From positions 22,325 through 86,324 of the IMG/VR virus record IMGVR_UViG_3300031823_000003: DNA of 64,000 nucleotides; one strand, 5' to 3'. Under the pieces are notes generated by a model. That model did not search any database, was not told the origin of the DNA, and worked only from the letters and a program-made list of their open reading frames with translations. Shown piece by piece: positions 12,847-28,839 of the stretch; within the stretch, counting starts at the first letter, position 1, and each line of letters starts with the position of its first letter. The position numbers and the translations under genes were made by a program. The DNA is from a virus.

Positions 12847-13896
12847 CTACCGTTTGACGATTTGATTCGTCCCGGCCATTATACCGAAGTCACGACTAAA
12901 GACGAGATTATCTCGTCTATCCTGTATTTCGCTCATTCTTGCCGCGATCTGATAGAACTCCGCGAGCATCGGCAGAGCGTTATGTAGCTCGGAAGTCCCC
13001 TCTTTTAGCCTGAGTAGAACGCTGGCATACATCTCCAAAGCCTGAAAATAGTTATGCTCGAACGGGACAGTTTCCGCACCTGTATACGGAAATGGCGCAG
13101 CAACCGGATAGGCGACGGCGTTGACCGCTACTTGTTGCGTGGCATTGGCTGCCGGATGCACCACGAATATATTCAGTCCGATCGGTGCCCAGCGAACAGG
13201 GGTGCTCGCTGAGTCGCATTCCCAGTCAGACCCGGACGCAAACTGCTCATAGTCTAAACTGAATAGGCTGACCTTTCTCAGCGGCGACTGCGGCCCATAC
13301 ACATCGGTCAATGCGAGCATTCCTTTCGGCAGGTATTGCCAGACGCTATTCGGATTGAGATTGAATATCGACTGCACGATCATCGTGGGACGACCCACTA
13401 ACAACATAAGTTCATTGAGCGCTTCAACGATTGCTGTGAAAATTTCCAGTTGCAGATTCCAGAACACGGGCGGGTTGCTCTCTTCCAGCCGCTGAATAAC
13501 GTTCTGCGCGAGCACGCTGATCGGCACATTACAACTGGCATTCGCTGGAGTTGCCAGTCCCGACTGCATGATGCCGTTGGCAAACTGGATGAAATACACA
13601 ACTGCATTAGGCGCACTCACTAACAGTTGCGTCGGCAGTCCCGATACCGTTGGCGATACCGGGTCAACATGCAACACTCCCTGCATACCGCCAGATTGAG
13701 ATGGACTTGGCAGCACGACCAGATGCCAAGTGGTGCCTGTCACCGCATCGTTAATCAGCATCCCCGGCAGGGCGCTAAATCCCGCTGCCGGAGATAATCC
13801 TGTGGTCGTGACGATGCCATTGTTTGACACCCCGATCAGCCATGTAGTGCCATCAAGAGCTTGCAGATACGTCGGATTAGGGATAGGGATGCTCAT
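12847..13896 (-). CDS. Head-tail adaptor-like protein
   Basis: VIQRLEE..FWNLQLEIFTAIVEALNEL and VPFEHNYFQALEMYA adaptor-like segments. Confidence 0.55.
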   Translation of the reverse strand: MSIPIPNPTYLQALDGTTWLIGVSNNGIVTTTGLSPAAGFSALPGMLINDAVTGTTWHLVVLPSPSQSGGMQGVLHVDPVSPTVSGLPTQLLVSAPNAVVYFIQFANGIMQSGLATPANASCNVPISVLAQNVIQRLEESNPPVFWNLQLEIFTAIVEALNELMLLVGRPTMIVQSIFNLNPNSVWQYLPKGMLALTDVYGPQSPLRKVSLFSLDYEQFASGSDWECDSASTPVRWAPIGLNIFVVHPAANATQQVAVNAVAYPVAAPFPYTGAETVPFEHNYFQALEMYASVLLRLKEGTSELHNALPMLAEFYQIAARMSEIQDRRDNLVFSRDFGIMAGTNQIVKR

Positions 13897-13908: not shown

Positions 13909-16900
13909 CTAGTGATCCGTCCAAGTCTCAATCCATCCGAAATCCGCCTGCGCCGCCACGCTGGCGCTGCCGTTGTTGGTGATGAACTCTCCGGCGCGCA
14001 GAGTCGCTGTAGGCAGAGTCGTAGTGATCGGCGAGCTACATTTCGATACGCCGTCGATGTAGAAGTACCACTTGGAGTTCGCCGTGTCTTCGCGGATATC
14101 AAACACATGCGGCGTGCCCGCTACCACGGCAACGCCGCTATCAACTTGAGTCTGGGTTCCAGTCCCGCCAGCATTGGTGGTACATAGAAAATCAGTCGAA
14201 CTAACTGCGCTGGTAGACGAGTAGGTGAAAGCCGCGCAGTGAAACGTCGAGCAGGTATCCGTACCGCCTATATTCGCGGTAGTTGTGTTCGTGAATCCCA
14301 GCCACCAGCGTGTGGTTGCTAGAGTGCCTACCGCCGCATAGGCATTGAACCAGATGTTCACGGCTCCCGGTATGTAGACGGCTGACCCGTTGACGTTGGA
14401 TACGTTTCCGTTTGTAACAGTAGTCAGGCAGGCCAGCATCTGACTGGCTGTGGATGTCGGCACAATAGCGCTGGAAGTCGAGCAAGTGATAGCCAGCGCA
14501 TCATTGTTCAAGAGAACCGAAGAGGTTGCCGCGCCGCCCGCATATGTCGTCCAGCGATGGTAGCGCAGCGCCTGCGATCCCGGCATGTAATACATGCCGT
14601 TCAGCGTGCCGTTCTGGGAAATCACGCGGTTATTGGAGACTGTGGCTTCCACTGAGTTGCCAGCGACGCTGGCTGCCGGGAGCGCGTTCAATGGGCTGTT
14701 GGTCAGTGTGTCTGTGAAAGTGTTGACCCCGGAGCCGCCGACCAAGGCAGTGCCCCACTGGCCGGTGACTGAGGGCGCACCCGTCGCCGTGCTCCATGTC
14801 CATTTGAGATCGAACGTATGAGCGATTGTGGTGTTGATCGCTGTAGTACCAGAAACCGCTAGCGACCCGCCATTTAACGTAATGGTGGTTGTGTTCGTGG
14901 GCAGCAGTTGCACCGGGCAGCCAAACGCATATGTCCCGCTGACGCCCGCCGTGTAAGTGGTCAACTGGCACTGCACCGACCAGCTGCCATTGGTGACCGC
15001 AGTGCTGGGAACAGAGAACGCTCCCGTGGTGGCGATCTGTGCGCCATCGACGAACGCAGCAATGGTTACTGTGCCCGTATAAGAGGCTGGCAAAGTATAA
15101 ATGCCTCCGATGTCTATGTTGAGCGGGGAAGTGGCGACCAAGTTACCGGCGGGGATTGTCTGTGCGCCGCCCAGCATGGAAGTTGCAGTCGTACCTGTAT
15201 TGGTAGTCGCGATAGTGACATTGAACGCGGAAGAACCGATGCCGATTATCGCGCATCCCGAACAGGACGTGACCGTAAGAGCGCCCATCTTGACGTTGCC
15301 GCTGGTGTTACCCTGCGCACCGTTGCCGATGTCGAGAGTCCCGGCGGATTCGCGTGAGATGCCCACGTCATTGACTCCGCTGCCGTTCGTCCAACCCAGC
15401 ACTCCGCTGGTCGTGATATTGCTGTCAAACACTGTCCCCGGCCCCGACTGGTCGCCGGCGTAGGTGACATCGAAGTCCCATTGGGAAGCGGAGTCCAGGA
15501 AATAGATATTCCCGGTGATGTTGTTGTTGAATACTTCCGTGCAGTGATGGCCCCCGTTGATCCGGCCTGCGACATGCATGCGGCCCTGGTTATTGGCGAC
15601 TGTGTGGTAGAGGCCGATACAGTCCGCGACGGCTGGCCCGACGTTCCATGCCAGGTTGGGCGCTTCCAGATTGCGCACGTTCTGCACCGCCATGTACTCG
15701 GAACCGGGCTGCTGCGCGGCGTTGCCTTCGATATAGCTGTTGTCGATGTGGATGTTGTTAAGCGTGCTGCCGCGTCCGGCTGCGCCATTGAGATCAATAA
15801 AGCAGCCGTTGCCGCCGACGCATCCCCAGTGGGCGCTACCCGTGGTGGTAATCGGCCATCCGGCGACTGTGGTGACATAGAGCACGGTGGATGTGGGATC
15901 GACAGCCAAAGAACTGCAACCCAGATAGGATGGCCCACATATCGTGGCCGCGACGCCATTTACCCAGAATAATTCCCCGGTGTGAGCGGTATTGAAATTA
16001 AAAGTCGAACCGCCGTTGAGCGTAACCTGATTGCAGTTCGTGCCACAGTTGACGGTAGTGACCTTTTCCGTCATCGTTACGCCGCACATGGTCACACCGT
16101 CGAACACGCCCATACAGCCGTCGCCGCCATTCAGGTTGGTAAATACATATCCATCCCCGGAACCGCCCGCTCCTCCGAACACCGCGTAGTCGATGGAGTT
16201 GACCTTGCCGCCGGAATAGGACTTTGAGTTGTCAAGGCGCACGTTGTTGTTGTCTGCGACTGACCCGCTGGTGGCGTCTTCAAAGGTCCAATTGATTGTA
16301 TTGGCGATGCCTTGGATATTGACGTTACGGATGTCTGTATTGCCCTCGACGGCGTTGATGCACACGATTCCGCAGGTGATGACTGACGTGTTGGTGGGCG
16401 CGATCTGCAAGCCGCTCATGTTGAATGAGGTTTGCAGGCCGGTGGTGACGGAATTGGTGATGACGGCGGTGCCGGTGAAGCCGATGGTGGTGGTGATAAG
16501 AGTGCCCGAGCTTAGATTTCCTGGCGAGTAACCGACTAGATTTCCGTTTTGCCCGATGGAGAAACAGGCGCCAGCCGTAGTGTTACATTGAATATTAGCA
16601 CCATGCAGATACATCGTGACCGACTGCGTTGTAGAACCGATGACCACATTCGTGGCCGTAACAGGCGTAGAAGAGAGCGGAGCATCAATATGAACGTTGC
16701 AGGGCAGCGTGGGAGTAATATTGCATAGTGCCTGCATGGAATCAACCGTGAAGCCGGGGAAGAGAACAGAGTGAAACTCCGGAATCTGCGTTTTAAGCCC
16801 GCCCACCCCACCGCCGATCGGCTTCCCCTGCGTGAGGGTAGTATTCGTTTCAGGCACAGTGAGCGTCTCACCCGAGGCATTGAGTTGCCGCGTCCAGTTG

Positions 16901-19626
16901 GTGCCGTTCGGAATCGCGTTGAGATAGTCGCTGATCGAGGTGGCGGCGCGAGTATAGTAACCGCCTGCGGCATCTGCACCGATCGCCGTATCACTTGCAT
17001 CTCCTGACGCAACTGCCGCCGTAGCCGCTGACTTCGCGGGGTTGGAATCCACCAGCGTAATAATGTCGTTCGGCGGTGAGGCAAAGGGGCCAAAGTTAAT
17101 ATCACCCTTGGAGTTTAGTGTTTTCCCGGCAGGCTGAAACAGATCAGTCCACTGATTGGCATTGGTTTTACCGAGACATGTCATTCTTGCGGGAGAGCGA
17201 AAAGGCGCAGTTCCGCCTTGGCTGCAAGTCGGAGCCACGAAAGATATACCCGTAGGCCCCAGCGTAGAAACTGTGCCTAGGGCAGTTGATCCGAAATCCG
17301 CCTGGATCGGAGTGTTTGCGTCGTTAACCAGATTAGCTGGCCAGAACCAAAAAGCGGTCTGAAAGGTAGTCGTGGATGGCACCGTATAAGAACTGGCGGA
17401 AGCCTGCGTATCGGTAAAACTGCAAATCCCCGCCGTATTACATGACCCGCTGATGCCGGTAGCGATGGCAAAGTTTCCCGTTCCAAACGGCGGCACAGCA
17501 GACGACCCGACTGTCACTAACACATCCCAGGTCAATGTTCCGATGGAGGTATGGGCCAACCCTTCTTGTAGATCAATCGAAGGCCACTGGAGAGGAATAC
17601 TCACAGCGCCACTGGTAGGCTGTGCAAAGCCAATGAACAGCGGTGGATTAGCGCCGTATACCGAACCATGCGGTACCACAAAATAATTGCGTTGGGTTGT
17701 GGGACTACCGCCACTCGCAAATGTTGGAACCGCGCCGGCAATGGGGAACGTTCCTACTATCTTGGAGCCGAACTGACCACCAGCTAGCAGCATACCCATC
17801 TGCGCGTTGGTGATGCCATACAGAGGGTTCGTTATACCGCCCTGAGCCTCATAGATATTGCTCATCGTGCCCGATACGAACGAGCCGAAATAGCGGATCC
17901 CGAATACCGGGTTAGCCTGGCAAACTGTGTTATCGATTGATACACCGTTACCGGCATTGCCGGAGTCATAGCAGTTGATATTGGTCAACTCGGTGTTGTG
18001 AATGTACATGATCCCGGCGTTTCCGGAATCGGTCCGGGAATAAAAGAAAGCTCCTATAGGCCAGTTCGCTGTGGTTTTAATGACCGCTGTAGAGCGGTTA
18101 GTAGCTCCTGTAATCTGAAGCTGCTGATCGTTGTCGTCCACAACGCCATAGCTGAATGCGCCTGTCGCTGCCGAGGGAAACAACTGGATCAAGTGGAGAT
18201 TGTCGATGATGACGTGGTCGGAAGCGTCTTCGATCGCGGCGTTTTCTATCCCGGTGAAGCCGAATGTGGTATCGCCCGCTGAGAATGTACTGCTGCCCAG
18301 CGAAACTGTATAACTGGTCGAGCTCGGCGTGGTGAGCACCGTGGCAATGAATTTAGAATCTGTCGTCTGGGAGTGGACTTCCACCGCAGCCTGATCGCCG
18401 ACTACAAAGGGGTGAGTGGTTGCCGTAGTGATTGTGATTGTGCCGCTGCTTGCCGATGCACTGGAAATCTGAGCGCCGTCTATGTTCAGTGTCGATCCCA
18501 TCGAGAGATTAAAGAGCTTGTGGTAGCCGATCCCAGTAGGAGGGCTGCCGACGTAGATGCACCGGTCACGGGTGGAGCAGGCAATGAATGCGCCTGCGCC
18601 GTCCAGCACGCCGCCGCGTCCACGCATGTATACAGTGGCATACACGCTGTAGGTTGTGCTGCTCATTAATTTGACGTAAGGCGAGGCTGAATTGCTGGCA
18701 TCGTGCGGAGTGTCCGAGGTCCATGCGTCGTTCCACGCTTCCTGGATACCGGAAGATGCGGAGCCGACCGTGTACCCGGCAGAGTGCGCGTTGACAGTGA
18801 CGCCTGTGATGGTTCCGCTGCCTACCCCAGCGGTACAAGTGCCGCCTGTGACTACAATCTGTTCCGGGGTGCCGGTGCCCGCGATCCGCACCGGGTAGAC
18901 GTAGTTATTGGCGGCGGAATTGGTATCGATGCCAAGCGGACAGGGGGCTAAATGGATCGTAACCGCTCCCGGAACAGTGAGATTGTCCGAAGGCGATTGC
19001 GACCAGTTCCATGACGGCGTGACGTTACGGACGAAATTCTGGTTGTTCATGGTGAACGGGGTGCTCTGACAGGGCGACCCCGAACAGGGCTGTATGATGT
19101 TTTGCGCGGCAACGGGGATTTTATTGACATCGCCGGTGCCGGCGGTCGCGCACACCCATGCGGAGCCATTCCATTGAAGGACTTGGGAGGCAGAGCAGGT
19201 GGTAATGAGACTGATGGGGACCGTGCCGCTGGTTCCGCCGCCAGTCAGACCTGTGCCGGCGGTGACGCCTGTGATAGTGCCGCCGCCGCTGGACCCGCCG
19301 CCTGTATTGCACACCCATGCGCCGTTGAGATATACGGCGATGACTTGAGAGGAGCCGACGGTGCAGGGATTGGAACTAAGAGAGCAATTGGAGCACAGGA
19401 CGGTGGTGCCGGGCTGGGGAAATGGAGTGGAAGTGATCTGGTCGAAGGTGAGCGGTCCGGTGTAAAGGCCGAGGGTGAAATCGTTGGGAGCGGTCCACAC
19501 ATTGGGCAGGTCTGTTGCACCGTAAGAATGCTGAACCTGAGTTTGCGCCGCAATCCCGATGAATAAAAATATTGTTGCCAGCCCCAAACGGACGAACCTG
19601 CCCATGCCCGTACTCATGCGTTTCAC
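13909..19626 (-). CDS. Very large fibre/spike-like protein with signal peptide (1905 aa)
   Basis: MGRFVRLGLATIFLFIGIAAQ signal-like N-terminus; ITGVTAGTGLTGGGTSG and CSASQVLQWNGSAWVC fibre motifs; beta-helix-like regions; many Cys. Confidence 0.75.
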   Translation of the reverse strand: MKRMSTGMGRFVRLGLATIFLFIGIAAQTQVQHSYGATDLPNVWTAPNDFTLGLYTGPLTFDQITSTPFPQPGTTVLCSNCSLSSNPCTVGSSQVIAVYLNGAWVCNTGGGSSGGGTITGVTAGTGLTGGGTSGTVPISLITTCSASQVLQWNGSAWVCATAGTGDVNKIPVAAQNIIQPCSGSPCQSTPFTMNNQNFVRNVTPSWNWSQSPSDNLTVPGAVTIHLAPCPLGIDTNSAANNYVYPVRIAGTGTPEQIVVTGGTCTAGVGSGTITGVTVNAHSAGYTVGSASSGIQEAWNDAWTSDTPHDASNSASPYVKLMSSTTYSVYATVYMRGRGGVLDGAGAFIACSTRDRCIYVGSPPTGIGYHKLFNLSMGSTLNIDGAQISSASASSGTITITTATTHPFVVGDQAAVEVHSQTTDSKFIATVLTTPSSTSYTVSLGSSTFSAGDTTFGFTGIENAAIEDASDHVIIDNLHLIQLFPSAATGAFSYGVVDDNDQQLQITGATNRSTAVIKTTANWPIGAFFYSRTDSGNAGIMYIHNTELTNINCYDSGNAGNGVSIDNTVCQANPVFGIRYFGSFVSGTMSNIYEAQGGITNPLYGITNAQMGMLLAGGQFGSKIVGTFPIAGAVPTFASGGSPTTQRNYFVVPHGSVYGANPPLFIGFAQPTSGAVSIPLQWPSIDLQEGLAHTSIGTLTWDVLVTVGSSAVPPFGTGNFAIATGISGSCNTAGICSFTDTQASASSYTVPSTTTFQTAFWFWPANLVNDANTPIQADFGSTALGTVSTLGPTGISFVAPTCSQGGTAPFRSPARMTCLGKTNANQWTDLFQPAGKTLNSKGDINFGPFASPPNDIITLVDSNPAKSAATAAVASGDASDTAIGADAAGGYYTRAATSISDYLNAIPNGTNWTRQLNASGETLTVPETNTTLTQGKPIGGGVGGLKTQIPEFHSVLFPGFTVDSMQALCNITPTLPCNVHIDAPLSSTPVTATNVVIGSTTQSVTMYLHGANIQCNTTAGACFSIGQNGNLVGYSPGNLSSGTLITTTIGFTGTAVITNSVTTGLQTSFNMSGLQIAPTNTSVITCGIVCINAVEGNTDIRNVNIQGIANTINWTFEDATSGSVADNNNVRLDNSKSYSGGKVNSIDYAVFGGAGGSGDGYVFTNLNGGDGCMGVFDGVTMCGVTMTEKVTTVNCGTNCNQVTLNGGSTFNFNTAHTGELFWVNGVAATICGPSYLGCSSLAVDPTSTVLYVTTVAGWPITTTGSAHWGCVGGNGCFIDLNGAAGRGSTLNNIHIDNSYIEGNAAQQPGSEYMAVQNVRNLEAPNLAWNVGPAVADCIGLYHTVANNQGRMHVAGRINGGHHCTEVFNNNITGNIYFLDSASQWDFDVTYAGDQSGPGTVFDSNITTSGVLGWTNGSGVNDVGISRESAGTLDIGNGAQGNTSGNVKMGALTVTSCSGCAIIGIGSSAFNVTIATTNTGTTATSMLGGAQTIPAGNLVATSPLNIDIGGIYTLPASYTGTVTIAAFVDGAQIATTGAFSVPSTAVTNGSWSVQCQLTTYTAGVSGTYAFGCPVQLLPTNTTTITLNGGSLAVSGTTAINTTIAHTFDLKWTWSTATGAPSVTGQWGTALVGGSGVNTFTDTLTNSPLNALPAASVAGNSVEATVSNNRVISQNGTLNGMYYMPGSQALRYHRWTTYAGGAATSSVLLNNDALAITCSTSSAIVPTSTASQMLACLTTVTNGNVSNVNGSAVYIPGAVNIWFNAYAAVGTLATTRWWLGFTNTTTANIGGTDTCSTFHCAAFTYSSTSAVSSTDFLCTTNAGGTGTQTQVDSGVAVVAGTPHVFDIREDTANSKWYFYIDGVSKCSSPITTTLPTATLRAGEFITNNGSASVAAQADFGWIETWTDH

Positions 19627-19687
19627 CTCGAACGGTGTCTATTACGAAATTGTACCCGACGAGTCCAGAACTATCAGTGCCGGGAGT

Positions 19688-22495
19688 TCAGTGCTGTGTC
19701 TGTGTGGTTTGCAGGAACGCGGCGTTCAGTGTGGACAGATTGACGCCATAGTCGGTGCCATCGGACGCCGAGTTGTGATAGACACTGGTGGGAACCAGAC
19801 CATAATTACCGATGCTGGCGTCATTTGGGTCAAATGCCGCGCCGTTCATCATCCCTATCATGCCGATACACGCTGAGGTTGCGGTCGATCCGGGGCATAC
19901 CGTGGCAGCGGGAAATGTCAGGGTGCACGTTGCGGAGCCGCAATTGTTCCCGGCGTTGACGCCGCCGACCTCCATATATTTTGCCGAACATCGACCGGGA
20001 AACGGGTTGTAGGTCACAGTCGAGTTCGTGGTATCGACTTCATTTTCTGAACATCCTATTGCTGATGCTCCGGATGCACAGCCCTCGACGTTGCCATCGC
20101 CTTGTGCAACCCAGCCAGTCCAGCCTGTGCCGGGAGTAGCTGGGCACGACGGCGCGGAACTGAGGTCGAACGCAAATAGGTTGTTCTGCCAAGTTGCGTT
20201 TTGCAGGAATTGATTCGCCGGACATGTGCCCATCTGCTCGACAGTGCCGAATCCGGATGCAGACTCGGTTGCACCAGTTTGCAGCCAAGTGATGTTGCCG
20301 CCGGATTGACCCGCGTAATAGAACGTCCCGTTGAGATCAGATGGCGTCATGCCACTGACTTCGACAATGATCTCGGTAGTGCCAGCGGCGACAGGCCACC
20401 CGGTAAGACTGGGAATAGTTGCGGTGACGATGCCACCAGAGCGCGATAATACTGTCGGTGTTTGAGCGTGCGTCGGGCCGGGGCAGTTAGTACCCGTGTC
20501 GCTCCAGATCGTGGTCGCGGTGCCAAAGAACATGCGGCCATTATTCTTGGCTGCGTCCGTAGTCTGCATGACGAGTGTATTGTGGGTGAATTGTAGGTAA
20601 GCGGGGACGCCTTCCATATTTTGCACAACGCAGCCTGTCGCACTGGATGAGCTGGCGGACGGTTGAGAATAGACGACGGTCAGTCCATACGGGTTAGTGC
20701 CGGAGAGAGCGATAGCGCCACGGGACGTAGAGAGAGTGAAATTGTTACCTGTTCCTGTTGGCGAATTCCAAGTTGAGTCCGAGCATCCGGTCACGAGCAC
20801 CGGATCACCGGGGAATATCTGGGTTTCTTGTAGACCCGCACCGCCGTTACCGCATACAAGTGAGACTGTCCCACTGGTCTGTGTACCGTTGCAAATGAAT
20901 GCCTGCCCGAACCCAGTGACCTGCATCCCGGACGGAAATGCCACTATGCCGGATGCGTCGTACACGCTGGAGTTGCCGAGATCGTAAAGGAGATTGTTCG
21001 TGATATTGATGCGGCGTGATGCCCCGGCAGTGCCGCCGCCGTTGCCGATGGTGTAGTTGGAGCGGCCAATCATGGATAGTCCCGTGAGCGCGTGGCGGCA
21101 GAGATTGTTGCGGTAGGTAATGTCGGTGATGGTGGCGGTGTAGTTATCGCATGGACTGGTGTTCGAGCAATTCCGGGGATTGGCGGTAAAGCACTGCCCT
21201 TGCTGCGCGCCGGAAGTGTCCGAGTATTCGACGATATTAGTGTCGTACAGCACACGCTGTGCGGTCTTGAGTTCAGTGCGGTTCTTGAGATCGAGAGAGG
21301 TAGCGCCTGTGTATGCCGTGCCGACCCATGACGGAGGCTGCGTGAAGCGATTGTGCCAGAGATCGAGATCGTAAGCGTAATAGTTGGAGTCCTGGCTGGA
21401 TACGCCGCCGACAAAGAACCCGCTGGATGCCCCGGAGATCCATGAATTACCAAGGAAAAATGGTCCGGGAGTCTCGGCGATGGCGACGGCATGGCCTTCG
21501 TTGGCCGCGCGAATGTCGTAGTCGATATAGGTGTCGGTGATCCCGCAGCGGCGGCAGTTGGCCATATGCATGAAGGTTGAGATTTGGTTAGTGCCGGGGC
21601 CGCCACTGTTCGATGAGGTGACGCATGAGCCTGTGCCTGTAGCTGTGGTACACCAGTCCTTGGCATCGCCGTGGCCGTAGATGCCGACGAACCAGATGTC
21701 CGAGGCGGTCTGGGATACGAGAGTGTGCGGCGTGCCGTAGGCGTCTACATCGGTGTTGATGACATTGCCCGCGAGGGTGACGGTGGTCTTGGGCCGGAAC
21801 TCAAAGTACATAAAGGCGTAATGTGACGGTCCGATATTGGTGGTTGCGTCCCATGTGCCGGATTGGATCAGTAGTCCCTGATTACCGGGAGTCCAGTTGC
21901 CCTCGAATGTAGGCATGGAGCCAATGTCGTTGGAGCAGCCATTATTACCGGATGACCACCATGTAGAGATGTCGCCTGATGGCGGCTGACGAGTGGCAGT
22001 GGCGTCGGTGATCCCGTGCGAGCAGACGGTCTGGCCGAGAGTGAGCGGAGTGTCGGACTCGAATACGATAAATTTAGCGGGGGCTGATCCACTGACTATC
22101 TTAGTTACCAGTGTCAGATTGACAAACGGTCCTTCTCCCTGAGAGCACGTGTATCCCGGCGTCTGCATGGAGATTAGCGTTCCGTGCGTCACTTGGATCA
22201 GCCACCACTGGTCGGCGGCGGCCACCCAGTCACAGATATCTTGTTGCAGGTTGGCAAATGTTGTGGCCGTGCGCGTGACATCGAATACGCCGCCGGGAGG
22301 AAATATTTCGGCAGGTTCGCCGAGCGATGTGAGCGGGATGAATTGTGGGAGGGCGGCAGTGGTCAAGTTGGCATTGCTGAGCCGGATGTTATTGCTGATC
22401 CGGGTGCCGGGAGTAACGCGCTCTTGAGCGCTCAGCGATACGTGCAGCAAGACGACAACCAGAGCCATCGCTACCGACTTGGCCACCATCTTCAT
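19688..22495 (-). CDS. Secreted right-handed beta-helix (pectin-lyase-like) protein, possible depolymerase or adhesin
   Basis: Signal MKMVAKSVAMALVVVLLHVSLSA; KNRTELKTAQRVLYDTNIVE, DITYRNN, RINITNNL beta-helix rungs. Confidence 0.7.
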   Translation of the reverse strand: MKMVAKSVAMALVVVLLHVSLSAQERVTPGTRISNNIRLSNANLTTAALPQFIPLTSLGEPAEIFPPGGVFDVTRTATTFANLQQDICDWVAAADQWWLIQVTHGTLISMQTPGYTCSQGEGPFVNLTLVTKIVSGSAPAKFIVFESDTPLTLGQTVCSHGITDATATRQPPSGDISTWWSSGNNGCSNDIGSMPTFEGNWTPGNQGLLIQSGTWDATTNIGPSHYAFMYFEFRPKTTVTLAGNVINTDVDAYGTPHTLVSQTASDIWFVGIYGHGDAKDWCTTATGTGSCVTSSNSGGPGTNQISTFMHMANCRRCGITDTYIDYDIRAANEGHAVAIAETPGPFFLGNSWISGASSGFFVGGVSSQDSNYYAYDLDLWHNRFTQPPSWVGTAYTGATSLDLKNRTELKTAQRVLYDTNIVEYSDTSGAQQGQCFTANPRNCSNTSPCDNYTATITDITYRNNLCRHALTGLSMIGRSNYTIGNGGGTAGASRRINITNNLLYDLGNSSVYDASGIVAFPSGMQVTGFGQAFICNGTQTSGTVSLVCGNGGAGLQETQIFPGDPVLVTGCSDSTWNSPTGTGNNFTLSTSRGAIALSGTNPYGLTVVYSQPSASSSSATGCVVQNMEGVPAYLQFTHNTLVMQTTDAAKNNGRMFFGTATTIWSDTGTNCPGPTHAQTPTVLSRSGGIVTATIPSLTGWPVAAGTTEIIVEVSGMTPSDLNGTFYYAGQSGGNITWLQTGATESASGFGTVEQMGTCPANQFLQNATWQNNLFAFDLSSAPSCPATPGTGWTGWVAQGDGNVEGCASGASAIGCSENEVDTTNSTVTYNPFPGRCSAKYMEVGGVNAGNNCGSATCTLTFPAATVCPGSTATSACIGMIGMMNGAAFDPNDASIGNYGLVPTSVYHNSASDGTDYGVNLSTLNAAFLQTTQTQH

Positions 22496-24399
22496 CGCAT
22501 ACTCGTTCCCGGCGTGACCCGTGTCCCCGGTGTAAATCTAGTTGCCCCGACTACCGTTCCCGGCGGTGGAATCGGAGCCTGACTCGTATTCAGCATCCCG
22601 TCTGTGTTTGACGCCAGCGTTCCTGTACCCGCGCATAAATCCGAGGCGTTCAGGTCACGGTTGTTGAGACGGCCCAGATTGAATACCTTCTCAATGCACT
22701 TCATGATTGAAGTGAATTCGTAGGGATTGCCGGATGTGGGACCGTGAACGACAGTGTTCTTGGCGAACGGGCCGATCGAGAGGATCGGGGAACGCATGCC
22801 AAGACTGAGTGCATCCTGAGAGACAGGTGCAACGTGATCCGGCTGCCCGCCGAAATCGTCCCATACGATGAATATTTGGCTGTGGTAATAGAGATATTTG
22901 TTGGCGAACACTGCGGCGAGCTTGGACTGCACCCACCCCTGTCCCGCTTGTAGATCGGCGAGCGGAGTAGCAAATCCGGTGCTCGCGTGCTCCGTGTTAG
23001 CTTCGACATTCGCGGTCAGGAATGCAATCTGTGGGAATGTGCTGCTGGCAGTGTTATCGACACATTGATTGCCTTGGCTCAGAGTGACACAATCCGAATC
23101 CAGACTACATGCCGCATGCGGAGTGTTTACACATTGCCCCGTGAGCGCGGCGGCATCGGTATTGAACACAGCGTCGGAAACGTTATAGACAGTCGAATAA
23201 TTGGACCGGAAGAATAATTGTGGCACAAACGTGGACGCCGCGAGCGAGGCATAGTTGCCGTACCATTTCCACGGATGCGGTAGTCCGGCGGTCTCGGCGA
23301 GTTCCGCGATGGTGGTCACGTTAGGACACGCTGCGCCGGGAGTGTTGCCGATAGAGGCTGAAAGTTTACATGTGCCCGAACTGCATGCGGTTGCTGAGAT
23401 ACCGTCATTCGTGCATGACCCGCTGACTACCGTGCTTCCGTCGGTGTAGGACGTGCAATTCGCTGATCCCGCACCGTTGATGTATTTACCAGATTGGCAG
23501 AAACATTTGCAGGCGGTTGTGGCACTGGCTGAACATGATCCCGCTGAGTACCCGGTGCCCGCCGCGAGGCCGTCTCCGGATGGGCCGCAATTTGGGTCGC
23601 CGGACGCGCACACGTTATAGAACTTTGTGCCGTTGTAGATTTCGCCTGGCCCTGTGTATGGAGAACTGGGAGGGGTGCCGGTGCCGCCATTGCCGCATCC
23701 CCATCCGATACTGGGATTGTCGCTGGCCTCGTTGCTGGTCGCGGCGATAATCATCAGGTGATTCGGGTAGGTTGGTCCGGTGAGAGACGAGAAAAACTGA
23801 TCGTTGATACCGTAAGTATTGGCCAGTGACCAGTAGTAGTTGAGGGCGCTGGAGTCGGCGTAATAGTACGAACTGCTGAGACAAGGACCATTCGCGCCCG
23901 AGCTACAATTTGTACCGCCACTTTGAGTGCAGGCTGCGCCGCCAACTGCACAGGTGCCGCCGGCGTTCCAGCCGTTCATCGCCCCGGCGTGGATTGCAGT
24001 CAGAGAGTTAGCGCGGGAGTGGAGCCATGCCGAGTCCGGGAGATTGCCCTGCTGTCCTTGAGGGTTGGTGACAGTCACGAGTTGCTTGTCAATATAGTTC
24101 GTGGTGGACTGAACGCCGATCGTGACATTGCTGCATGTGCCGCCGCCTGTGCATGGAGTGTTGTTGCCGACCGTGCACGAGATTCCTTGCAGAGCATGGT
24201 TGAGGACGCACTGACCGCTGACTCCGGGGAAGGAGCCGAAGTAGTTATCGAAGGTGCGGTTCTCTTGGATGATATACACTACATGATTGACGCAGGGAGG
24301 GCTGAGAGAGGCATTGTAAGGACAGGACTGCCCAGCGCATACTTCTGCTGAAATCATCAATATAGGAATCAGGGAGCGCCAAACAGTCCCGCATCTCAT
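22492..24399 (-). CDS. Phosphoesterase family protein (phospholipase C / acid phosphatase AcpA-type) with signal peptide and Cys-rich inserts
   Basis: HVVYIIQENRTFDNYFG, GPTYPNH, TEHA, WDDFGGQPDHVAP, GMRSP motifs. Confidence 0.9.
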   Translation of the reverse strand: MRCGTVWRSLIPILMISAEVCAGQSCPYNASLSPPCVNHVVYIIQENRTFDNYFGSFPGVSGQCVLNHALQGISCTVGNNTPCTGGGTCSNVTIGVQSTTNYIDKQLVTVTNPQGQQGNLPDSAWLHSRANSLTAIHAGAMNGWNAGGTCAVGGAACTQSGGTNCSSGANGPCLSSSYYYADSSALNYYWSLANTYGINDQFFSSLTGPTYPNHLMIIAATSNEASDNPSIGWGCGNGGTGTPPSSPYTGPGEIYNGTKFYNVCASGDPNCGPSGDGLAAGTGYSAGSCSASATTACKCFCQSGKYINGAGSANCTSYTDGSTVVSGSCTNDGISATACSSGTCKLSASIGNTPGAACPNVTTIAELAETAGLPHPWKWYGNYASLAASTFVPQLFFRSNYSTVYNVSDAVFNTDAAALTGQCVNTPHAACSLDSDCVTLSQGNQCVDNTASSTFPQIAFLTANVEANTEHASTGFATPLADLQAGQGWVQSKLAAVFANKYLYYHSQIFIVWDDFGGQPDHVAPVSQDALSLGMRSPILSIGPFAKNTVVHGPTSGNPYEFTSIMKCIEKVFNLGRLNNRDLNASDLCAGTGTLASNTDGMLNTSQAPIPPPGTVVGATRFTPGTRVTPGTSMR

Positions 24400-24402
24400 T
24401 TG

Positions 24403-24669
24403 CTAGATACTGTCCTTGTCACACGGGATTAGATCGACATATACGAACTCCCCCGGTTTCAGCTTATTAAATGCGGCTGGATTACTAACCGTCATCGTCA
24501 AGCTGGCAGATGGCGTCCATTTGGACCATTGTGCGTTGGCCGAACCCTCTTTGTTGCTGTAAACGGCGCTCAACGCAAGCTCCTGCTGATATGGCTCTCC
24601 TTCGTTGCCGTGAACGGTATTGACACTGTTGACCAAGCACTTCAACCGGAGCACAGCTCCCTCACTCAT
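24403..24669 (-). CDS. Small phage hypothetical protein
   Basis: 88 aa; WSKWTPSASLTMTVSNPAA..GEFVYVDL resembles a recurrent phage small-protein type. Confidence 0.7.
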   Translation of the reverse strand: MSEGAVLRLKCLVNSVNTVHGNEGEPYQQELALSAVYSNKEGSANAQWSKWTPSASLTMTVSNPAAFNKLKPGEFVYVDLIPCDKDSI

Positions 24670-25045
24670 CTACTTTCTCCTTTCGTACACTCTTCCAAAA
24701 TTTCCACCACGGACGCCTCTGCACCCTGCTATCATCGCCCGCTTCTTTGTCCGAATCCGGGTAATCATACGTATTCGGCTGCCCCACGAAGAACACATCC
24801 AATATTCGCCCTGTCTGCTCATCTAATCGAGCACATGCCTCAATCGGATCGCACTGCATCTTGCCCGGAATGACTTTGCCATCTGTATCATGGATCGCGT
24901 GACAGAAATTCGCTCGTCCCGGCACGGTTCCGGTAGCACAGTGACGCGCCGCGAGCACAGGCCGATGCGGGCGCACACATCCGCCGGATGTGAGCACGAT
25001 CGCCATCAACGGGAACAGTAATTTTACTAGTCTCACCGATTTCAT
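24662..25045 (-). CDS. Putative lipoprotein
   Basis: Start MKSVRLVKLLFPLMAIVLTSGG-C (lipobox-like) at 25045, ATGA-coupled to the upstream gene. Confidence 0.55.
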   Translation of the reverse strand: MKSVRLVKLLFPLMAIVLTSGGCVRPHRPVLAARHCATGTVPGRANFCHAIHDTDGKVIPGKMQCDPIEACARLDEQTGRILDVFFVGQPNTYDYPDSDKEAGDDSRVQRRPWWKFWKSVRKEKVDE

Positions 25046-25761
25046 TGCACCGTAGGTATCGCCGTGCCTGCCGTTGCCGCAGAGGTCTCTTTGATCGCAA
25101 TCGCACCCAGTGCAGCATGCCCCGAACTGGCCATCGTCCACGTAGGAGCCGTTCCCGATGTGGTATTCAGGCTCCACGCAAAACACATACGGTTCGCACC
25201 GCAGGTCTCGATAGTATATGGAGCATTGATCGAGATACTGGTCTGCCCGGTGCTGGACTGGGCGGTCTGAAGGATTACGTCGTTTGATCCGGACAGGGTT
25301 AATGTCACCCCGGCAGGAGTAGTTGTGTTCGTGGACTGATCGCGGTTGCCGACTACATCCAATACAAACGGCGTGGCAGTGGATGATAGTTCCAGTACTT
25401 CGCAGCGCCATGTGCCTGTCGTAGTGGATGTACGAGTCACCGTGATTGTAGTAACGCCGGAAGTGGAACTGAGATTGTACGCGCAGCTTGTACTGGACGT
25501 AGTACTGTCTGCACCTTCGCAGCCTCCCGGGACCGTGTATGTTCCAGCGCCAGACACGCTGGTGATAAAGTCCGCGTTGCTGATCGACATGCCGATCAGG
25601 ATCAGGTGCCCGGTTCCGGTCGAGGCGACTGTGACGTTACAGGTAGCGGACGATACATTGCAGGCGCTGGAGAACACGTGCTGCACGAGGGTGAATGTCG
25701 CCCATGCAGGAGATGACAATGACAGCAGAATGGAAGCGATTCCGGGTAATAGGCGTTTCAT
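25042..25761 (-). CDS. Secreted Ser/Thr-rich beta-sandwich protein
   Basis: Signal MKRLLPGIASILLSLSSPAWA, then TFTLVQH; paired Cys. Confidence 0.75.
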   Translation of the reverse strand: MKRLLPGIASILLSLSSPAWATFTLVQHVFSSACNVSSATCNVTVASTGTGHLILIGMSISNADFITSVSGAGTYTVPGGCEGADSTTSSTSCAYNLSSTSGVTTITVTRTSTTTGTWRCEVLELSSTATPFVLDVVGNRDQSTNTTTPAGVTLTLSGSNDVILQTAQSSTGQTSISINAPYTIETCGANRMCFAWSLNTTSGTAPTWTMASSGHAALGAIAIKETSAATAGTAIPTVQ

Positions 25762-25764
25762 CGG

Positions 25765-28700
25765 TTAATTGGCCTGCACCACGATTAGTCTGGGGAACGT
25801 CACCGTGGCTGACACAAATGCCGCTTGCGTAGCGGTATCCGTGGCGCGGCCTACCTGCACGATCATCAGCGCTCCGGCTACGCATCCCGTCATATCGGTG
25901 GAGTTCATCTGCACGTTCGAGTTGGACCAGAACTGGTTGGCTGTGGTATTCAGTGTAATCGTTGACAGGGAGTGCGAGGCATTGAACGTCACATCGTCGG
26001 TTGTGGTGCCGTCACCCTTGGCGCACGATACCTGGATCGCGGGGATAATCGTATGCCCGCTGGTTGTATCTGTGGACGCGACCTGAAACCGGATAAACGG
26101 GTTGGACGCGGAGTCCCAGTCCTCGGGGATAACCACGGAGAACTGAGCGAAAGTAGAGGACGTGTCCGTGATCGCAACGAATCCACTCTTGTTGTTGGTG
26201 CCCACCCGGCAGGTGACGGTCCCGCCTGATCCGATCGACCATCCCGCGCCTGCCGTAGTGTTATTGCAGTTGGCAGCGGGGATTGTTTTGACATCGGGAA
26301 AATCTATGTAAGCGTTCGCGCCAGCGGTCGCCGTAGACACGACTACCTTGTTCGCAGTGGTGGTGGTCGAGGCGAATACATCCAGAGTGCCAGTAGACGC
26401 AGGCAGAGACGCCGTGACGGAGCCGAGCGCGCCAGTGACGGGTTGTAGTGTGACTGTCCCGCTGGTGGCGTTTCCGAATGCAATTGATCCGGCGGTGCCG
26501 CTTGCGCCGAGAGTAGGAGTGGAAGTCCATGATGTGGCTGTCGTGCTGGTAGTATTGGGGATTTGCCCGGTCGCCGCGCTGGTCGCGTTAGTGCCGCCGC
26601 CAGCGATAGGTATTGTAGGCAGATCGGCGGTCCCGATAGTCTGGTATCCGGGTGCCGCCGTGGAGCCTGTATTATTCCCCCACCACTTGTGCGCTCCGGC
26701 GTTCCCCAGAGCGAGGGTTACCGCACTGGTAGAGGCGCTATTTGTAATCAGCGTACCATCCCCGGAGACTGAAACAACCGGGCCACCGCCTTGCGGCATA
26801 ATGGCACCCAAGAGTTGCTTGTAGGAATTCGACGCACCTGTCGCAGACTGCTGCACGAAGAAATCAATAAACAGAGCATTGGTACAAGTTTGATTGGGGG
26901 AACTCACTGCTGTATTGGAATCGGTATATACGCTATCGGCTGCGGCCAGCGATGCGCCGTTCTCAATCGTCAGACCCGGTGCACCTTTGACGATCAGATT
27001 GCAACTTGCTCCGGTTCCAACCGTCGTCGCAATGATTTCATAGTTCCAAGATGCGTTCGTGATCGCTACCGTGTTCAGTGCGCTGGATTGAATTGCGGCG
27101 AGCGGGGTCACCGTACCAGAGCCGCATCCCGATACAGAACATAATTTCGCGGTAATGGTCACCTGCGGCGTACTCGCCGTGGTTGTGCTAAGAACTCCGG
27201 AACCGTGAATAGCAAAGGGCTGCCCCGCACTGTTCAGGTAACTGGCCGCAAGAGACAATTCCATCAGTTGCACATCGGTAGCCGCAGTAGGATTCGATTG
27301 AGTGACAGAGGTTGTATTTGTAACAGCGGCTAAGGCGGAAGTGCCTGCTCCGCCTGATCCACAGGCTGCTCCCGCGTCTATCGTGTTGCCGTTAGCGTCG
27401 AATTTTACGCAATCGTTGGTGGTGGTGGTACCTGTAGATAATTGCAGTTTAGAGCCATTGCCTTGTTCGGATGTGACCCCTGAGATAGCGATAAGTCCGG
27501 CACCACTCACGGTTACTGGGGATGTTGCGGTCATTGCCCCGCCGCCGGAGCTGGTTACGCAGGTCGCGCAGGCAATAACTCCCGCCGCTGAAATCGTCGC
27601 AGGAGATGTTGCGGTGAGCGCTCCTCCGTTGGTGGTAGTCGCGCAGGTAGAGCACGCGATAGTCCCGGTGCCAGTGATTGTGCCGCCTGTGATCGGGGGG
27701 GTGGTGGCAATGCTGGTAACCGATCCAATACTAAAAAATGACCCGCCATTCTGCGAGGCTTGGATCGTGTTTGTACCGGAGTTAGGCCAGAGGATGTCAA
27801 TGCCAGCAGTCGGAGTAGGCGAGGTCGATCCCGCTGTCCAGCAGAGAGCGGTTACAGTGGAAGGGCAGGCAGCACCCAGTGATCCAGCGGAGCCGATTTG
27901 CACTGTGCTGCCAAAAGTTCCGGTGGTACCTACACTCAGGCTGGTACCGACGCTATCGCTACCGCCGTTTATGATATTGCCCGTCTGATCCACGGTAAAC
28001 ACATCAACGTTGGTGTTGGCAGAGTTTGATTTCCCCTCAAACAGAAACCCGGTATTGCTCACGGTCGGAATGTACGCGAATACGACGCTGTCCGTGTTGG
28101 TGACTTGGGTGGCATTCAGTTCCCCAAATGGAGTCGCGGCAGTGCCCAATCCGGATGCGCCGGCGGAGGCGACGAGTAATGGAGTATTGACGGCGACAGA
28201 CGCTAAATTGGAGAGCGCGGTGTTCGCCCCGCTGCTGGCTGGAGTGGCACAGGCCCACGCTGATCCGTTCCATGCGAGCACCTGATTGGTAGAGCAACTG
28301 GTCAACAGTCCAAGAGTGGTTGTACCTGTCAGACCGCCACCGGAGGTTGCGCCTATCACTGCCGCTGCACATGCGCCATCGCCGCGCAGGTACGTGCTTA
28401 CTGAGCAGGTGCCGCTGAATAACGCGATTACGTCAGCACTGGCCGCAATGGATGGCACGCCCGAAGTGGTGGTGTTTTTGAGTATGCCCGTGCTCAGCCC
28501 GGAGAGCAGAGTGCCATTTATCCCTTTGACTGTAAGCACAGCGGAACTGCTCAATGTACCGTCACCGCTCACGGCCAGGCTTTTAATTGAAGTAGTGGAT
28601 GCCCAGATCGCAATCTGTCCCGGTGTAATCGTTCCCGATGTTGATACGTTCGCGGTGCTGGTGCCACACGTGGGACAGGAGATCACGCTGCCCGTCACTA

Positions 28701-28839
28701 CAATCGGAGAGGTACCCGTGTAGGTTGTGCCACCGCCTGCACCGCCTCCGCCTCCGGATTGCTGTGCGGATACGTACGCACTGCCGAACAGACCCAAGGA
28801 AAGCACGGCGACGGCGACAGCGGAGATGATTTTTTTCAT
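25765..28839 (-). CDS. Fibre-like protein with signal peptide and shaft repeats (1024 aa)
   Basis: Signal MKKIISAVAVAVLSLGLFGSAYVSA; repeats TSPIVVTGSVISCPTC, TSPATISAAGVIACATC, TSPVTVSGAGLIAI. Confidence 0.75.
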   Translation of the reverse strand: MKKIISAVAVAVLSLGLFGSAYVSAQQSGGGGGAGGGTTYTGTSPIVVTGSVISCPTCGTSTANVSTSGTITPGQIAIWASTTSIKSLAVSGDGTLSSSAVLTVKGINGTLLSGLSTGILKNTTTSGVPSIAASADVIALFSGTCSVSTYLRGDGACAAAVIGATSGGGLTGTTTLGLLTSCSTNQVLAWNGSAWACATPASSGANTALSNLASVAVNTPLLVASAGASGLGTAATPFGELNATQVTNTDSVVFAYIPTVSNTGFLFEGKSNSANTNVDVFTVDQTGNIINGGSDSVGTSLSVGTTGTFGSTVQIGSAGSLGAACPSTVTALCWTAGSTSPTPTAGIDILWPNSGTNTIQASQNGGSFFSIGSVTSIATTPPITGGTITGTGTIACSTCATTTNGGALTATSPATISAAGVIACATCVTSSGGGAMTATSPVTVSGAGLIAISGVTSEQGNGSKLQLSTGTTTTNDCVKFDANGNTIDAGAACGSGGAGTSALAAVTNTTSVTQSNPTAATDVQLMELSLAASYLNSAGQPFAIHGSGVLSTTTASTPQVTITAKLCSVSGCGSGTVTPLAAIQSSALNTVAITNASWNYEIIATTVGTGASCNLIVKGAPGLTIENGASLAAADSVYTDSNTAVSSPNQTCTNALFIDFFVQQSATGASNSYKQLLGAIMPQGGGPVVSVSGDGTLITNSASTSAVTLALGNAGAHKWWGNNTGSTAAPGYQTIGTADLPTIPIAGGGTNATSAATGQIPNTTSTTATSWTSTPTLGASGTAGSIAFGNATSGTVTLQPVTGALGSVTASLPASTGTLDVFASTTTTANKVVVSTATAGANAYIDFPDVKTIPAANCNNTTAGAGWSIGSGGTVTCRVGTNNKSGFVAITDTSSTFAQFSVVIPEDWDSASNPFIRFQVASTDTTSGHTIIPAIQVSCAKGDGTTTDDVTFNASHSLSTITLNTTANQFWSNSNVQMNSTDMTGCVAGALMIVQVGRATDTATQAAFVSATVTFPRLIVVQAN

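Follow-up and report, generated by a model that had tools for sequence, protein, structure and literature searches.

The textbook assembly pathways of tailed phages are all cytoplasmic, and we know of no studied case in which assembly takes place elsewhere. How, then, should a run of genes with secretion signals inside the structural operon of such a phage be understood? The run was found in a window of 64,000 nucleotides from the 86-kb genome of a short-tailed soil phage of Acidobacteria, whose relatives point to Acidobacteriota. Seven tightly coupled minus-strand genes at 13909-28839 form a block of ~15 kb, 17% of the genome (Table 1). Neighboring genes either leave 3-12 nt between them or overlap by 4-8 nt, with the exception of 61 nt before P0001, and the 127-aa gene begins at an ATG that shares bases with the stop codon of the 239-aa gene. 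For P0001, the GTG is a less likely start than an ATG at 19617, which follows a GAGG motif and gives 1902 aa. The block genes are co-directional with the head and tail genes and translationally coupled within the late structural operon, in which the SU10-adaptor-like gene directly downstream also places them; their assignment as late genes is strongly supported. Since the phage encodes an HK97-type capsid protein, portal and terminase, its DNA would be packaged in the cytoplasm.

Table 1. Genes of the block and its neighbors, in order of decreasing position. A slash marks the predicted cleavage site.
Feature	Positions	Strand	Description
142-aa protein	31916-32344	-	leader-like N-terminus; upstream of block, between head genes and 341-aa gene
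341-aa protein	30356-31381	-	signal-less, Cys-free; just upstream of block; weak PHROG tail-fibre N-terminal matches
P0004, 1024 aa	25765-28839	-	Sec leader, VSA/QQSGGGGG; 22 mature Cys
239-aa protein	25042-25761	-	Sec leader, AWA/TFTLVQ; 7 mature Cys
127-aa probable lipoprotein	24662-25045	-	leader MKSVRLVKLLFPLMAIVLTSGG/C...; 5 mature Cys
88-aa protein	24403-24669	-	no leader; sole signal-less gene among the seven
P0003, 635 aa	22492-24399	-	leader, VCA/G or CAG/Q; 28 mature Cys
P0002, 935 aa	19688-22495	-	Sec leader, LSA/QERVTP; 26 mature Cys
P0001, 1905 aa from GTG	13909-19626	-	leader, IAA/QTQVQ; 44 mature Cys
SU10-adaptor-like protein, 349 aa	12847-13896	-	PF24175, E 6.2e-07, 30.5 bits (cut-off 27); directly downstream of block

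Leaders were called with a strict rule (positive n-region, uncharged hydrophobic h-region of 8-16 residues, small residues at -3/-1). The rule is our own heuristic, not SignalP, and is a rough filter because it also flags 420 of 2980 shuffled N-termini. Sec or lipoprotein signals had been proposed for six of the seven consecutive genes in a sequence-only reading of the window, and this was borne out: five meet the strict rule and the 127-aa protein fits a lipoprotein pattern, against 3 of 76 ORFs of at least 100 aa flagged outside the block in the same genome. The lipoprotein leader ends in LTSGG/C, which would fit a permissive PROSITE-type lipobox rule but not the canonical L-[AS]-[GA]-C. The same reading had allowed that the signals might not be conserved, or that true starts might lie downstream of them. 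Of the best 149 P0004-family cluster representatives, 113 carry a leader by the strict rule and 118 by a loose one. So does every P0002 relative with a complete N-terminus. Downstream starts are implausible because the genes are so tightly spaced. Gln directly follows the cleavage motif in 102 of 115 P0004 relatives (overall Gln frequency, 3.3%); when leader-like ORFs were taken from 400 kb of an Acidobacteriaceae genome for a host-type comparison, 35 of 75 had Gln at +1. The leader-bearing block proteins are very likely to cross the inner membrane. SAR-type releasable anchors were dropped as a candidate because most leaders of the family are rich in Leu and have clear cleavage motifs. C-terminal sorting signals (PEP-CTERM, T9SS CTD, autotransporter barrel) were also dropped, the C-termini being unlike these by eye and that of P0004 being modelled as a soluble jelly-roll.

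Mature forms of the six leader-bearing proteins contain, in the order of Table 1, 22, 7, 5, 28, 26 and 44 cysteines (density 2.2-4.8%). The Cys-rich character ascribed earlier to the large proteins was confirmed by comparison of their 22, 28, 26 and 44 residues with the 0 to 7 of signal-less virion proteins (capsid 1, portal 7, and none in the 341-aa, 911-aa and 623-aa proteins). Among signal-bearing P0004 representatives, the mature count is even in 111 of 118 and odd in 7 (binomial p ~3e-25), and the P0002 family has at least 16 invariant Cys columns (alignment A1). An even number of cysteines as a mark of disulfide-bonded exported proteins is a logic reportedly set out by Dutton and colleagues in 2008, and the parity seen here is the signature expected of such proteins. 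Because secretion signals and paired cysteines occur together, it is very probable that these proteins do not fold in the cytoplasm, the compartment in which tailed phages build their particles, but outside it.

The leaders might nevertheless go unused for export during infection, with cytoplasmic folding, classical assembly (given a late Sec block, or with the N-terminus as an inner-membrane tether), and leaders and cysteines inherited from bacterial ancestors. Some P0004 relatives with the same tip do appear leaderless, and leaderless representatives also lean even in cysteines (23 even, 8 odd). A PHROG scan of nine apparently leaderless relatives gave nothing beyond two weak matches. We consider this explanation improbable, since leaders with Gln at +1 are kept in about 100 divergent clusters, which implies selection for cleavage, since the parity of the leader-bearing proteins is so strong, and since the families are mainly viral and not recent host captures. 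Recent capture from the host was itself dropped on the last ground and because the two genomic loci with P0001/P0002 relatives are prophages with terminase and portal. Genuine export and extracytoplasmic oxidative folding, the premise shared by both interpretations offered earlier (appendages that join virions, or remodeling of the host surface by adhesins and enzymes), are thus well supported by leader conservation, Cys parity and Gln at +1; nothing computed here decides between the two.

The predicted functions of the block proteins center on glycans and surface polymers. P0004 has a Gly/Ser/Thr-rich, fibre-like body and a C-terminal CBM6/35/36-like jelly-roll at about aa 847-1018. The C-terminal model has a pLDDT of 68.8 (80-94 over the jelly-roll domain); the tip matches CBM36 with VIA Z 12.7 and rmsd 2.5 A over 121/124 residues, and Foldseek gave CBM6/36/22 matches at E ~5e-5. 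P0004 may accordingly be a glycan-binding fibre with a CBM-like tip, although the fold alone shows no sugar binding. No PHROG or Pfam match to an anchor domain was found in P0004. It has in common with P0001 (near aa 148 of the latter) the motif C-S-x-x-Q-V-L-x-W-N-G-S-A-W-x-C-A-T, a putative phage-fibre shaft motif. P0001 is a large mosaic protein, ~50% identical over ~810 aa to proteins of the prophages L001 and L002; the Atlas clusters nearest to its C-terminal 286 aa are viral, which serves as a lead only. PDB sequence searches with P0001, P0004 and the A1 profile returned no match.

P0002 is probably a right-handed beta-helix polysaccharide-degrading enzyme, as suggested by a poor structural model (pLDDT 49.5) whose best Foldseek matches are the HK620 and Sf6 tailspikes and chondroitinase B, with TM only 0.2-0.4. 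P0002 itself has no Pfam match, and its homologue in L001 has a Beta_helix match below threshold. Elsewhere in the genome, another leader-bearing protein matches Beta_helix (PF13229, E 1.4e-10). P0003 matches PF04185 at profile positions 1-355/356 (E 2.6e-33, 116.1 bits, cut-off 23), a PLC/AcpA-type phosphoesterase domain broken up by Cys-rich inserts; PDB sequence search gave weak matches to phospholipase C and acid phosphatase. Homologues of P0003 carry PF04185 and are at most about 30-35% identical over most of the protein. It resembles the PlcH/AcpA family in its full profile match and leader and differs from it in the Cys-rich inserts and the location in a phage structural operon. The predicted phosphoesterase may cleave phosphodiester-linked surface polymers or lipids.

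The 239-aa protein belongs to a family whose members are mostly viral and about 220-256 aa long, with Atlas feature scores of 0.96-0.97 to clusters that are 91-92% viral and structural rows at TM 0.63-0.76. The same fold was also found in Atlas fused to beta-helix, PhoD and GDPD enzymes, and the one BLAST homologue follows the fibre gene in the viral locus L007. No homologue of the 127-aa protein was found in 29 related loci, and no Pfam or PHROG match when it was scanned inside a longer ORF. The 88-aa protein matches phrog_6978 (unknown function; E 1.6e-10).

The P0004 C-terminal domain occurs in 26 loci from IMG/VR and in 3 genome loci. Across the IMG/VR loci (L007-L032), the matching ORF has a leader in all except L024 and L026, and in most cases more leader-bearing ORFs come after it. 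In L040, a close relative with a capsid protein 91% identical, different leader-bearing proteins occupy the same site; P0004 and its positional counterpart there align only over the leader and a Gly run, with no conserved globular domain after the leader. L009 encodes two paralogous signal-less ~227-aa proteins, each preceding a large protein; one of the two large proteins has a leader and the other has none. A PHROG scan of these cassette proteins gave a hydrolase on the 1757-aa protein as its sole match. P0001/P0002 relatives in the prophages L001 and L002 (with terminase and portal) are located just upstream of the terminase gene, beside host genes, and not after recognized tail genes. Single-protein scans of viral and genome contigs gave no P0002 relatives, which were found via profile A1; the SU10-adaptor-like protein had no relative in viral contigs, and none of 50,697 phage records gave a tblastn match to P0001, P0002, P0003, P0004 or the portal. 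The cultured phage Tunturi_1 (host Tunturiibacter psychrotolerans) has the same design; in the main text of the Tunturi paper, the terms 'mass spectrometry' and 'SDS-PAGE' are absent.

The exchange of block content in L040, like that of host-range determinants, and of the CBM-like tip among the 26 viral loci raises the possibility that the fibre, the depolymerase and the 1902-aa protein are receptor-binding proteins that are exported, disulfide-bonded in the periplasm, and docked last on fibre-less particles when lysis mixes the compartments. Within the structural operon, head genes lie on one side of the block and the adaptor-like gene on the other, the L009 pairs resemble equivalent cassettes, and particles of P22 and T4 can classically be given their tailspikes or fibres late, in vitro. 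Outside the block, no fibre or spike was recognized, so the earlier claim that a signal-less long fibre is lacking held to that extent; it is qualified by the weak tail-fibre matches of the 341-aa protein and by a 1150-aa protein without an assignment. The 341-aa protein is 79% conserved in L040 and is a candidate virion-side partner, or else an unrelated tail or neck protein. We nonetheless regard docking as unlikely, because no docking domain is conserved after the leader, a lipoprotein and a phosphoesterase are unlike virion parts, and the P0001-like and P0002-like genes of the two prophages sit upstream of the terminase gene beside host genes. Literature searches found no published precedent for leader-bearing tail fibres of tailed phages; a rumen-phage paper merely counts signal peptides. 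Somewhat more doubtful still is the strongest form of this proposal, in which tailed phages of Acidobacteria, together with numerous uncultured soil phages carrying these modules, would assemble host-recognition gear in two compartments, with cytoplasmic heads and tails and with fibres and depolymerases that are Sec-exported, disulfide-bonded, N-terminally capped and joined obligatorily at lysis. If true, such an obligatory extracytoplasmic assembly step is one not described for any tailed phage.

The lipoprotein gene adjoining fibre-like genes, and the relatives of P0001/P0002 at a prophage edge, would suit cargo for lysogenic conversion or superinfection exclusion, shown on or secreted by lysogens and without a virion role. 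Lambda Lom and Bor, T5 Llp, and Cor are leader-bearing or lipoprotein products encoded beside tail-fibre genes and active in the envelope rather than the virion; they are small single proteins. They are the best analogy for the 127-aa lipoprotein and are unlike a 15-kb set of fibres and enzymes. There is little chance that the block as a whole is such cargo: it is translationally coupled inside a late structural operon, no integrase or repressor was recognized in the scanned parts of the genome, and known exclusion proteins are much smaller than the 900 to 1900 aa found here.

Other known systems resemble the block in part. Podophage tailspikes and fibres (P22 gp9, HK620, Sf6, T7 gp17) are likewise large beta-helix or fibre proteins in a structural operon that bind or cleave glycans and show distal-domain mosaicism. 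They have no leader, few cysteines and an N-terminal particle-binding domain, and they fold in the cytoplasm, whereas every large block member combines a leader with 22-44 cysteines and lacks a recognizable anchor domain. The pIII protein of filamentous phages is a receptor-binding virion protein with a Sec leader, periplasmic disulfides and Gly-rich linkers; inoviruses assemble at the membrane and are then extruded, unlike a phage with an HK97-type capsid protein, portal, terminase and cytoplasmic DNA packaging. The MAT fibres of Bdellovibrio bacteriovorus are described as phage-tail-fibre-like proteins with a signal peptide that are exported and have varied binding tips; they are encoded by chromosomal genes of a predatory bacterium and have a conserved beta-rich ~130-aa domain directly after the signal peptide (Caulton et al., 2024; PMC10769870). 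The block proteins differ from them in having no conserved post-leader domain and no S74 domain by Pfam. Porphyromonas phage genes have been reported with Sec leaders whose cleavage exposes Gln, the Bacteroidetes Q-rule, on capsid, spanin and five unknown genes, with fibres and tail parts not mentioned in the sections consulted (Matrishin et al., 2023, PMC10367356; Szczesniak et al., 2023, PMC10653852). Cleavage would similarly expose Gln on most of the mature block proteins, copying the host rule; there the hosts are Bacteroidota, and here the relatives indicate Acidobacteriota.

Our leading interpretation, held at about even confidence, is that the block is a fast-evolving host-surface module of an Acidobacteria podophage, with products sent via the host Sec pathway and not folded in the cytoplasm. 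Signal peptidase I would cleave the block proteins and signal peptidase II the lipoprotein; disulfides formed in the periplasm and a probable pyroglutamate N-terminus would yield durable extracellular proteins. The glycan-binding fibre, beta-helix depolymerase, phosphoesterase and lipoprotein could then act jointly on the exopolysaccharide and outer surface of the infected cell and, after release at lysis, on neighboring cells, so that matrix would be cleared for progeny and receptors destroyed or masked. Some block proteins may also bind released particles. No route by which they might cross the outer membrane ahead of lysis is known to us. As to their fate, a mixed or free role as enzymes and adhesins, which we rate at around an even chance, is favored over attachment to virions at or after lysis, which is unlikely. 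Because some relatives with the same tip lack an evident leader, the tip can sit on cytoplasm-made fibres. Some points tell against a free role. Without block proteins on the particle there is no recognized receptor-binding protein, save perhaps the 341-aa protein, which is awkward for a podophage; for merely accessory proteins, 17% of the genome is a lot to invest; and mosaic exchange of C-terminal domains among many phages is typical of true receptor-binding proteins.

Direct testing is feasible, since Tunturi_1 and Tunturiibacter psychrotolerans are a cultured pair with the same design. If fibres and depolymerases of a widespread class of soil phages are exported and disulfide-bonded, the calling of receptor-binding proteins in metagenomes would change, as a leader now counts against a structural call, and biotechnological expression should use the periplasm or oxidizing strains. 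Lysis timing, host Sec capacity and Dsb activity would then limit phage yield differently. Even on the modest reading, 17% of the genome is spent on secreted matrix-degrading and glycan-binding proteins, which would be relevant to carbon turnover in acidic soils, rich in Acidobacteria and their exopolysaccharides.

The window is the final 64 kb of a one-contig virus record (86,324 bases in total) and holds a podophage-type late operon on its minus strand, in which the seven genes at the tail-fibre position, here called the block, either lie 3-12 nt apart or have 4-8 nt in common with their neighbour, with a single exception, a gap of 61 nt before the last gene. Beyond the adaptor-like gene that follows the block, the operon continues with more large, Cys-poor virion-type proteins. 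By capsid protein, the nearest named phages are the Tunturiibacter phages Tunturi_1 and Tunturi_2 (26% identity) and Brucella podophages; given the kinship to the Tunturiibacter phages and the genomic relatives of block proteins in Acidobacteriota assemblies, the host is most likely an acidobacterium. Two packaging-type ATPases are encoded in the genome, since a 627-aa HerA/FtsK-like protein (window 47331-49214, minus strand; DUF87 and TrwB matches; phrog_2666 'terminase large subunit', E 1.2e-15) is present besides the 744-aa terminase-like protein. The left end of the record contains a 36-base tandem repeat, as the first 30 bases return at offsets 36, 72 and 108 (G000:C1:1-140, in coordinates of the whole phage genome).

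Late-operon features of the window and predicted leader cleavage in the block (a slash marks the cleavage site)
Feature	Position	Strand	Matches or predicted cleavage
Terminase large subunit	40376-42610	minus	PHROG terminase matches; 744 aa
Portal	37228-39105	minus	PHROG portal matches; weak SU10_portal match (26.5 bits, below the cut-off of 30)
Major head protein	33771-34745	minus	phrog_9953, E 2.5e-22
341-aa protein, no leader	30356-31381	minus	Weak tail-fibre matches
The block	28839 down to 13909	minus	Seven co-directional genes
1024-aa gene			MKKIISAVAVAVLSLGLFGSAYVSA/QQSGGG
239-aa gene			...SSPAWA/TFTLVQ
127-aa gene			...VLTSGG/C, lipoprotein type
635-aa gene			...ISAEVCA/G or CAG/Q
935-aa gene			...HVSLSA/QERVTP
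1905-aa gene			...FIGIAA/QTQVQ
SU10-adaptor-like protein, directly after the block	12847-13896	minus	PF24175, above threshold

Leaders (predicted Sec-type or lipoprotein signals) were found on six of the seven consecutive block genes, the 88-aa gene being without one; the sequence-only reading had claimed as much, and it was borne out by the N-termini and by a strict leader rule that flags 3 of the 76 ORFs of at least 100 aa elsewhere in the genome. The rule is crude and also passes 420 of 2980 shuffled N-termini, so the case for the leaders rests on conservation and independent signatures. For the 1905-aa gene, a better start was located at an ATG at 19617 preceded by a GAGG motif, giving 1902 aa with the leader unchanged. 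One flagged ORF outside the block encodes a 142-aa protein just upstream (31916-32344), and another, outside the window, a 639-aa right-handed beta-helix protein (PF13229, E 1.4e-10, 14 Cys). The gene for the latter (G000:C1:13172-15091; L037:1173-3092; minus strand) lies downstream of those for Cys-free proteins of 623 and 911 aa and is followed by genes for small membrane proteins, which could be lysis genes.

The block leaders were judged genuine on four lines: conservation, Cys parity, Gln at +1, and the same preference in the likely host phylum. For the 1024-aa protein, a full HMMER scan returned 1511 related cluster representatives, and among the best 149 a leader was present in 118 (loose rule) or 113 (strict rule). 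The 36 strict negatives include several visible leaders missed by the rule and several contig-edge fragments, and perhaps ten to fifteen appear truly leaderless. Two relatives, P0023 and P0065, have no cleavable leader; an N-terminal domain of ~75-95 residues is followed by one strongly hydrophobic helix, which, if the gene calls are right, would place the fibre body outside and the small domain in the cytoplasm (type II membrane topology). A leader is present on every relative of the 935-aa protein whose N-terminus is complete, and at least 16 Cys columns are invariant in that family. The Cys richness noticed in the sequence-only reading also held: the four large block proteins contain 22, 28, 26 and 44 Cys after the leader, against 0 to 7 in signal-less virion proteins. 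Cys number is even in 111 of the 118 leader-bearing relatives of the 1024-aa protein (p about 3e-25). Such a bias is a known mark of disulfide-bonded exported proteins, a logic reportedly set out by Dutton and colleagues (2008).

Among relatives of the 1024-aa protein with an h-region, a small-x-small motif is followed by Gln in 102 of 115 (overall Gln frequency, 3.3%), and Gln also occupies +1 in three or four proteins of the block itself. In the Acidobacteriaceae genome holding locus L001, the motif precedes Gln in 35 of 75 leader-like ORFs, a figure diluted by membrane proteins among the 75 (400-kb sample, 301 ORFs of at least 120 aa). With this preference common to the phage family and the likely host phylum, the phage leaders appear to copy the host's rule for exported proteins. 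The two counts rest on relatives P0018-P0166 of the 1024-aa protein and on the G001 sample loci L043-L062, and Gln just after the predicted signal-peptidase site is very frequent in both sets. Two papers describe this 'Q-rule' for Bacteroidetes and relate it to the capping of signal peptidase I products with pyroglutamate (PMC10653852, PMC5837995); the former calls it exclusive to Bacteroidetes, and the main text of the latter does not contain the word 'Acidobacteria'. Acidobacteriota may follow the rule too.

The block proteins are very probably exported and folded oxidatively. This much is common to the two possibilities raised by the sequence-only reading, that exported appendages join virions at or after lysis or that exported adhesins and enzymes remodel the host surface, and it is what the leaders, Cys parity and Gln preference uphold; beyond export, the evidence splits. 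Unused leaders, or cargo for conversion or exclusion, jointly take what probability the readings weighed below leave over.

The 1024-aa protein has a Gly/Ser/Thr-rich, Cys-paired body and a terminal domain of ~170 residues (model pLDDT 80-94) that aligns structurally with CBM36, CBM35 and CBM6 modules (VIA Z 12.7, rmsd 2.5 Å, 121/124 residues; Foldseek). This CBM-like tip domain ends otherwise different proteins in 25 IMG/VR loci (47-77% identical), with a weak match (30%) in a 26th, L032, and is a mobile module; in a set of 185,579 species, each represented by a single genome, it turned up in just 3 loci, all in Acidobacteria assemblies. The 935-aa protein modelled poorly (pLDDT 49.5); it best matches chondroitinase B and the tailspikes of HK620 and Sf6, all with low TM, which is a lead to, not proof of, a beta-helix depolymerase. 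The PF04185 phosphoesterase profile is matched over its full length by the 635-aa protein, whose relatives are only distant. The 239-aa protein belongs to a 91-100% viral family, and its fold also occurs fused to PhoD, GDPD and DUF1565 beta-helix enzymes, a hint that the phosphoesterase encoded nearby could act on surface polymers containing phosphodiesters. The 1902-aa protein has a Cys-flanked motif in common with the fibre and is about 50% identical over about 810 aa to relatives in two prophages. Attachment of the block proteins to virions at lysis is favoured by the place of the block within the operon, by the mosaic way in which the tip domain has evolved and by the fact that no other receptor-binding protein was recognised in the genome; the lipoprotein and phosphoesterase inside the block speak against it.

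Related loci bear on this too. In the close relative L040, gene order is kept and identity is high (capsid 91%, portal 69%, terminase 71%, 341-aa protein 79%), yet the block site holds different leader-bearing proteins of 1701, 705 and >410 aa, which points to fast turnover of the block, like that of host-range modules. L040 has only two short stretches in common with the 1024-aa protein, and after the leader only a 'QQ-Gly-run' aligns; no conserved post-leader anchor was found between the two, and the want of an anchor domain counts against attachment at lysis. In the 26 IMG/VR loci, the matching ORF bears a leader in all except L024 and L026, and what follows it is mostly more ORFs with leaders, about 230-290 aa and 500-1700 aa long. 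On the IMG/VR contig L009 (1683-8549), a signal-less protein of ~227 aa occurs as two paralogues (49% identical), each followed by a large protein: the first of these has 895 aa, 8 Cys and no leader, the second 914 aa, 22 Cys and a leader. No names for the cassette proteins came from PHROGs. The arrangement looks like two equivalent cassettes, maybe duplicated adaptor-plus-fibre units, and is the best hint found that leader-bearing proteins can occupy the place of ordinary fibres. Attachment at lysis gains from these cassettes, and from the classical in-vitro addition of tailspikes and fibres to finished particles.

In L001 (Acidobacteriaceae assembly) and L002 (Solibacter assembly), the gene for a relative of the 1902-aa protein sits beside that for a relative of the 935-aa protein, and both products have leaders. 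The pair lies immediately upstream of the genes for a terminase and a PF04860 portal, with host TonB-receptor genes on the other side. Both families are thus phage-borne in a second, unrelated phage type, at the prophage edge and not behind recognised tail genes, a position that weakens the case for attachment. Between terminase and portal (L001:15367-18386; L002:16761-19321) are inserted genes for a HipA-like kinase, a DUF3037 protein and a PIN-like toxin (named from N-terminal sequence only) with a small partner gene. No precedent for signal-bearing tail fibres was found in the literature searched, and post-lysis attachment as the whole explanation is considered rather unlikely. The favoured single reading, given about an even chance, is that the block encodes a set of exported tools for the host surface, produced late in infection (glycan-binding fibre, depolymerase, phosphoesterase and lipoprotein). 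Its members would attack the dying cell at its capsule and outer surface and, once lysis has occurred, neighbouring cells, and some might also ride on particles.

Tunturi_1, a cultured podophage of Tunturiibacter psychrotolerans, has the same design. Its kinship to the present genome is confined to distant versions of the capsid, the terminase, one structural protein and an HNH gene. Leaders are present on all five of gp12, gp13, gp14 ('tail spike protein'), gp16 and gp17 ('virion structural protein'), which directly follow gp11 ('tail protein'); leaders were flagged in 7 of its 55 CDS overall, and the four large proteins among the five contain 20, 10, 20 and 32 Cys after the leader. The main text of the Tunturi phage paper makes no mention of signal peptides, mass spectrometry or SDS-PAGE.

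A leader-bearing fibre and enzyme block is a robust and widespread observation, contrary to the textbook route; its surprising part would be virion attachment of the block proteins. Phage receptor-binding and depolymerase modules are of a known kind, and their routing through Sec is new by the literature. Also new here are the Cys-parity and Gln statistics on the family of the 1024-aa protein, the block replacement in L040, and the connection to Tunturi_1 and its host, a phage-host pair in culture.
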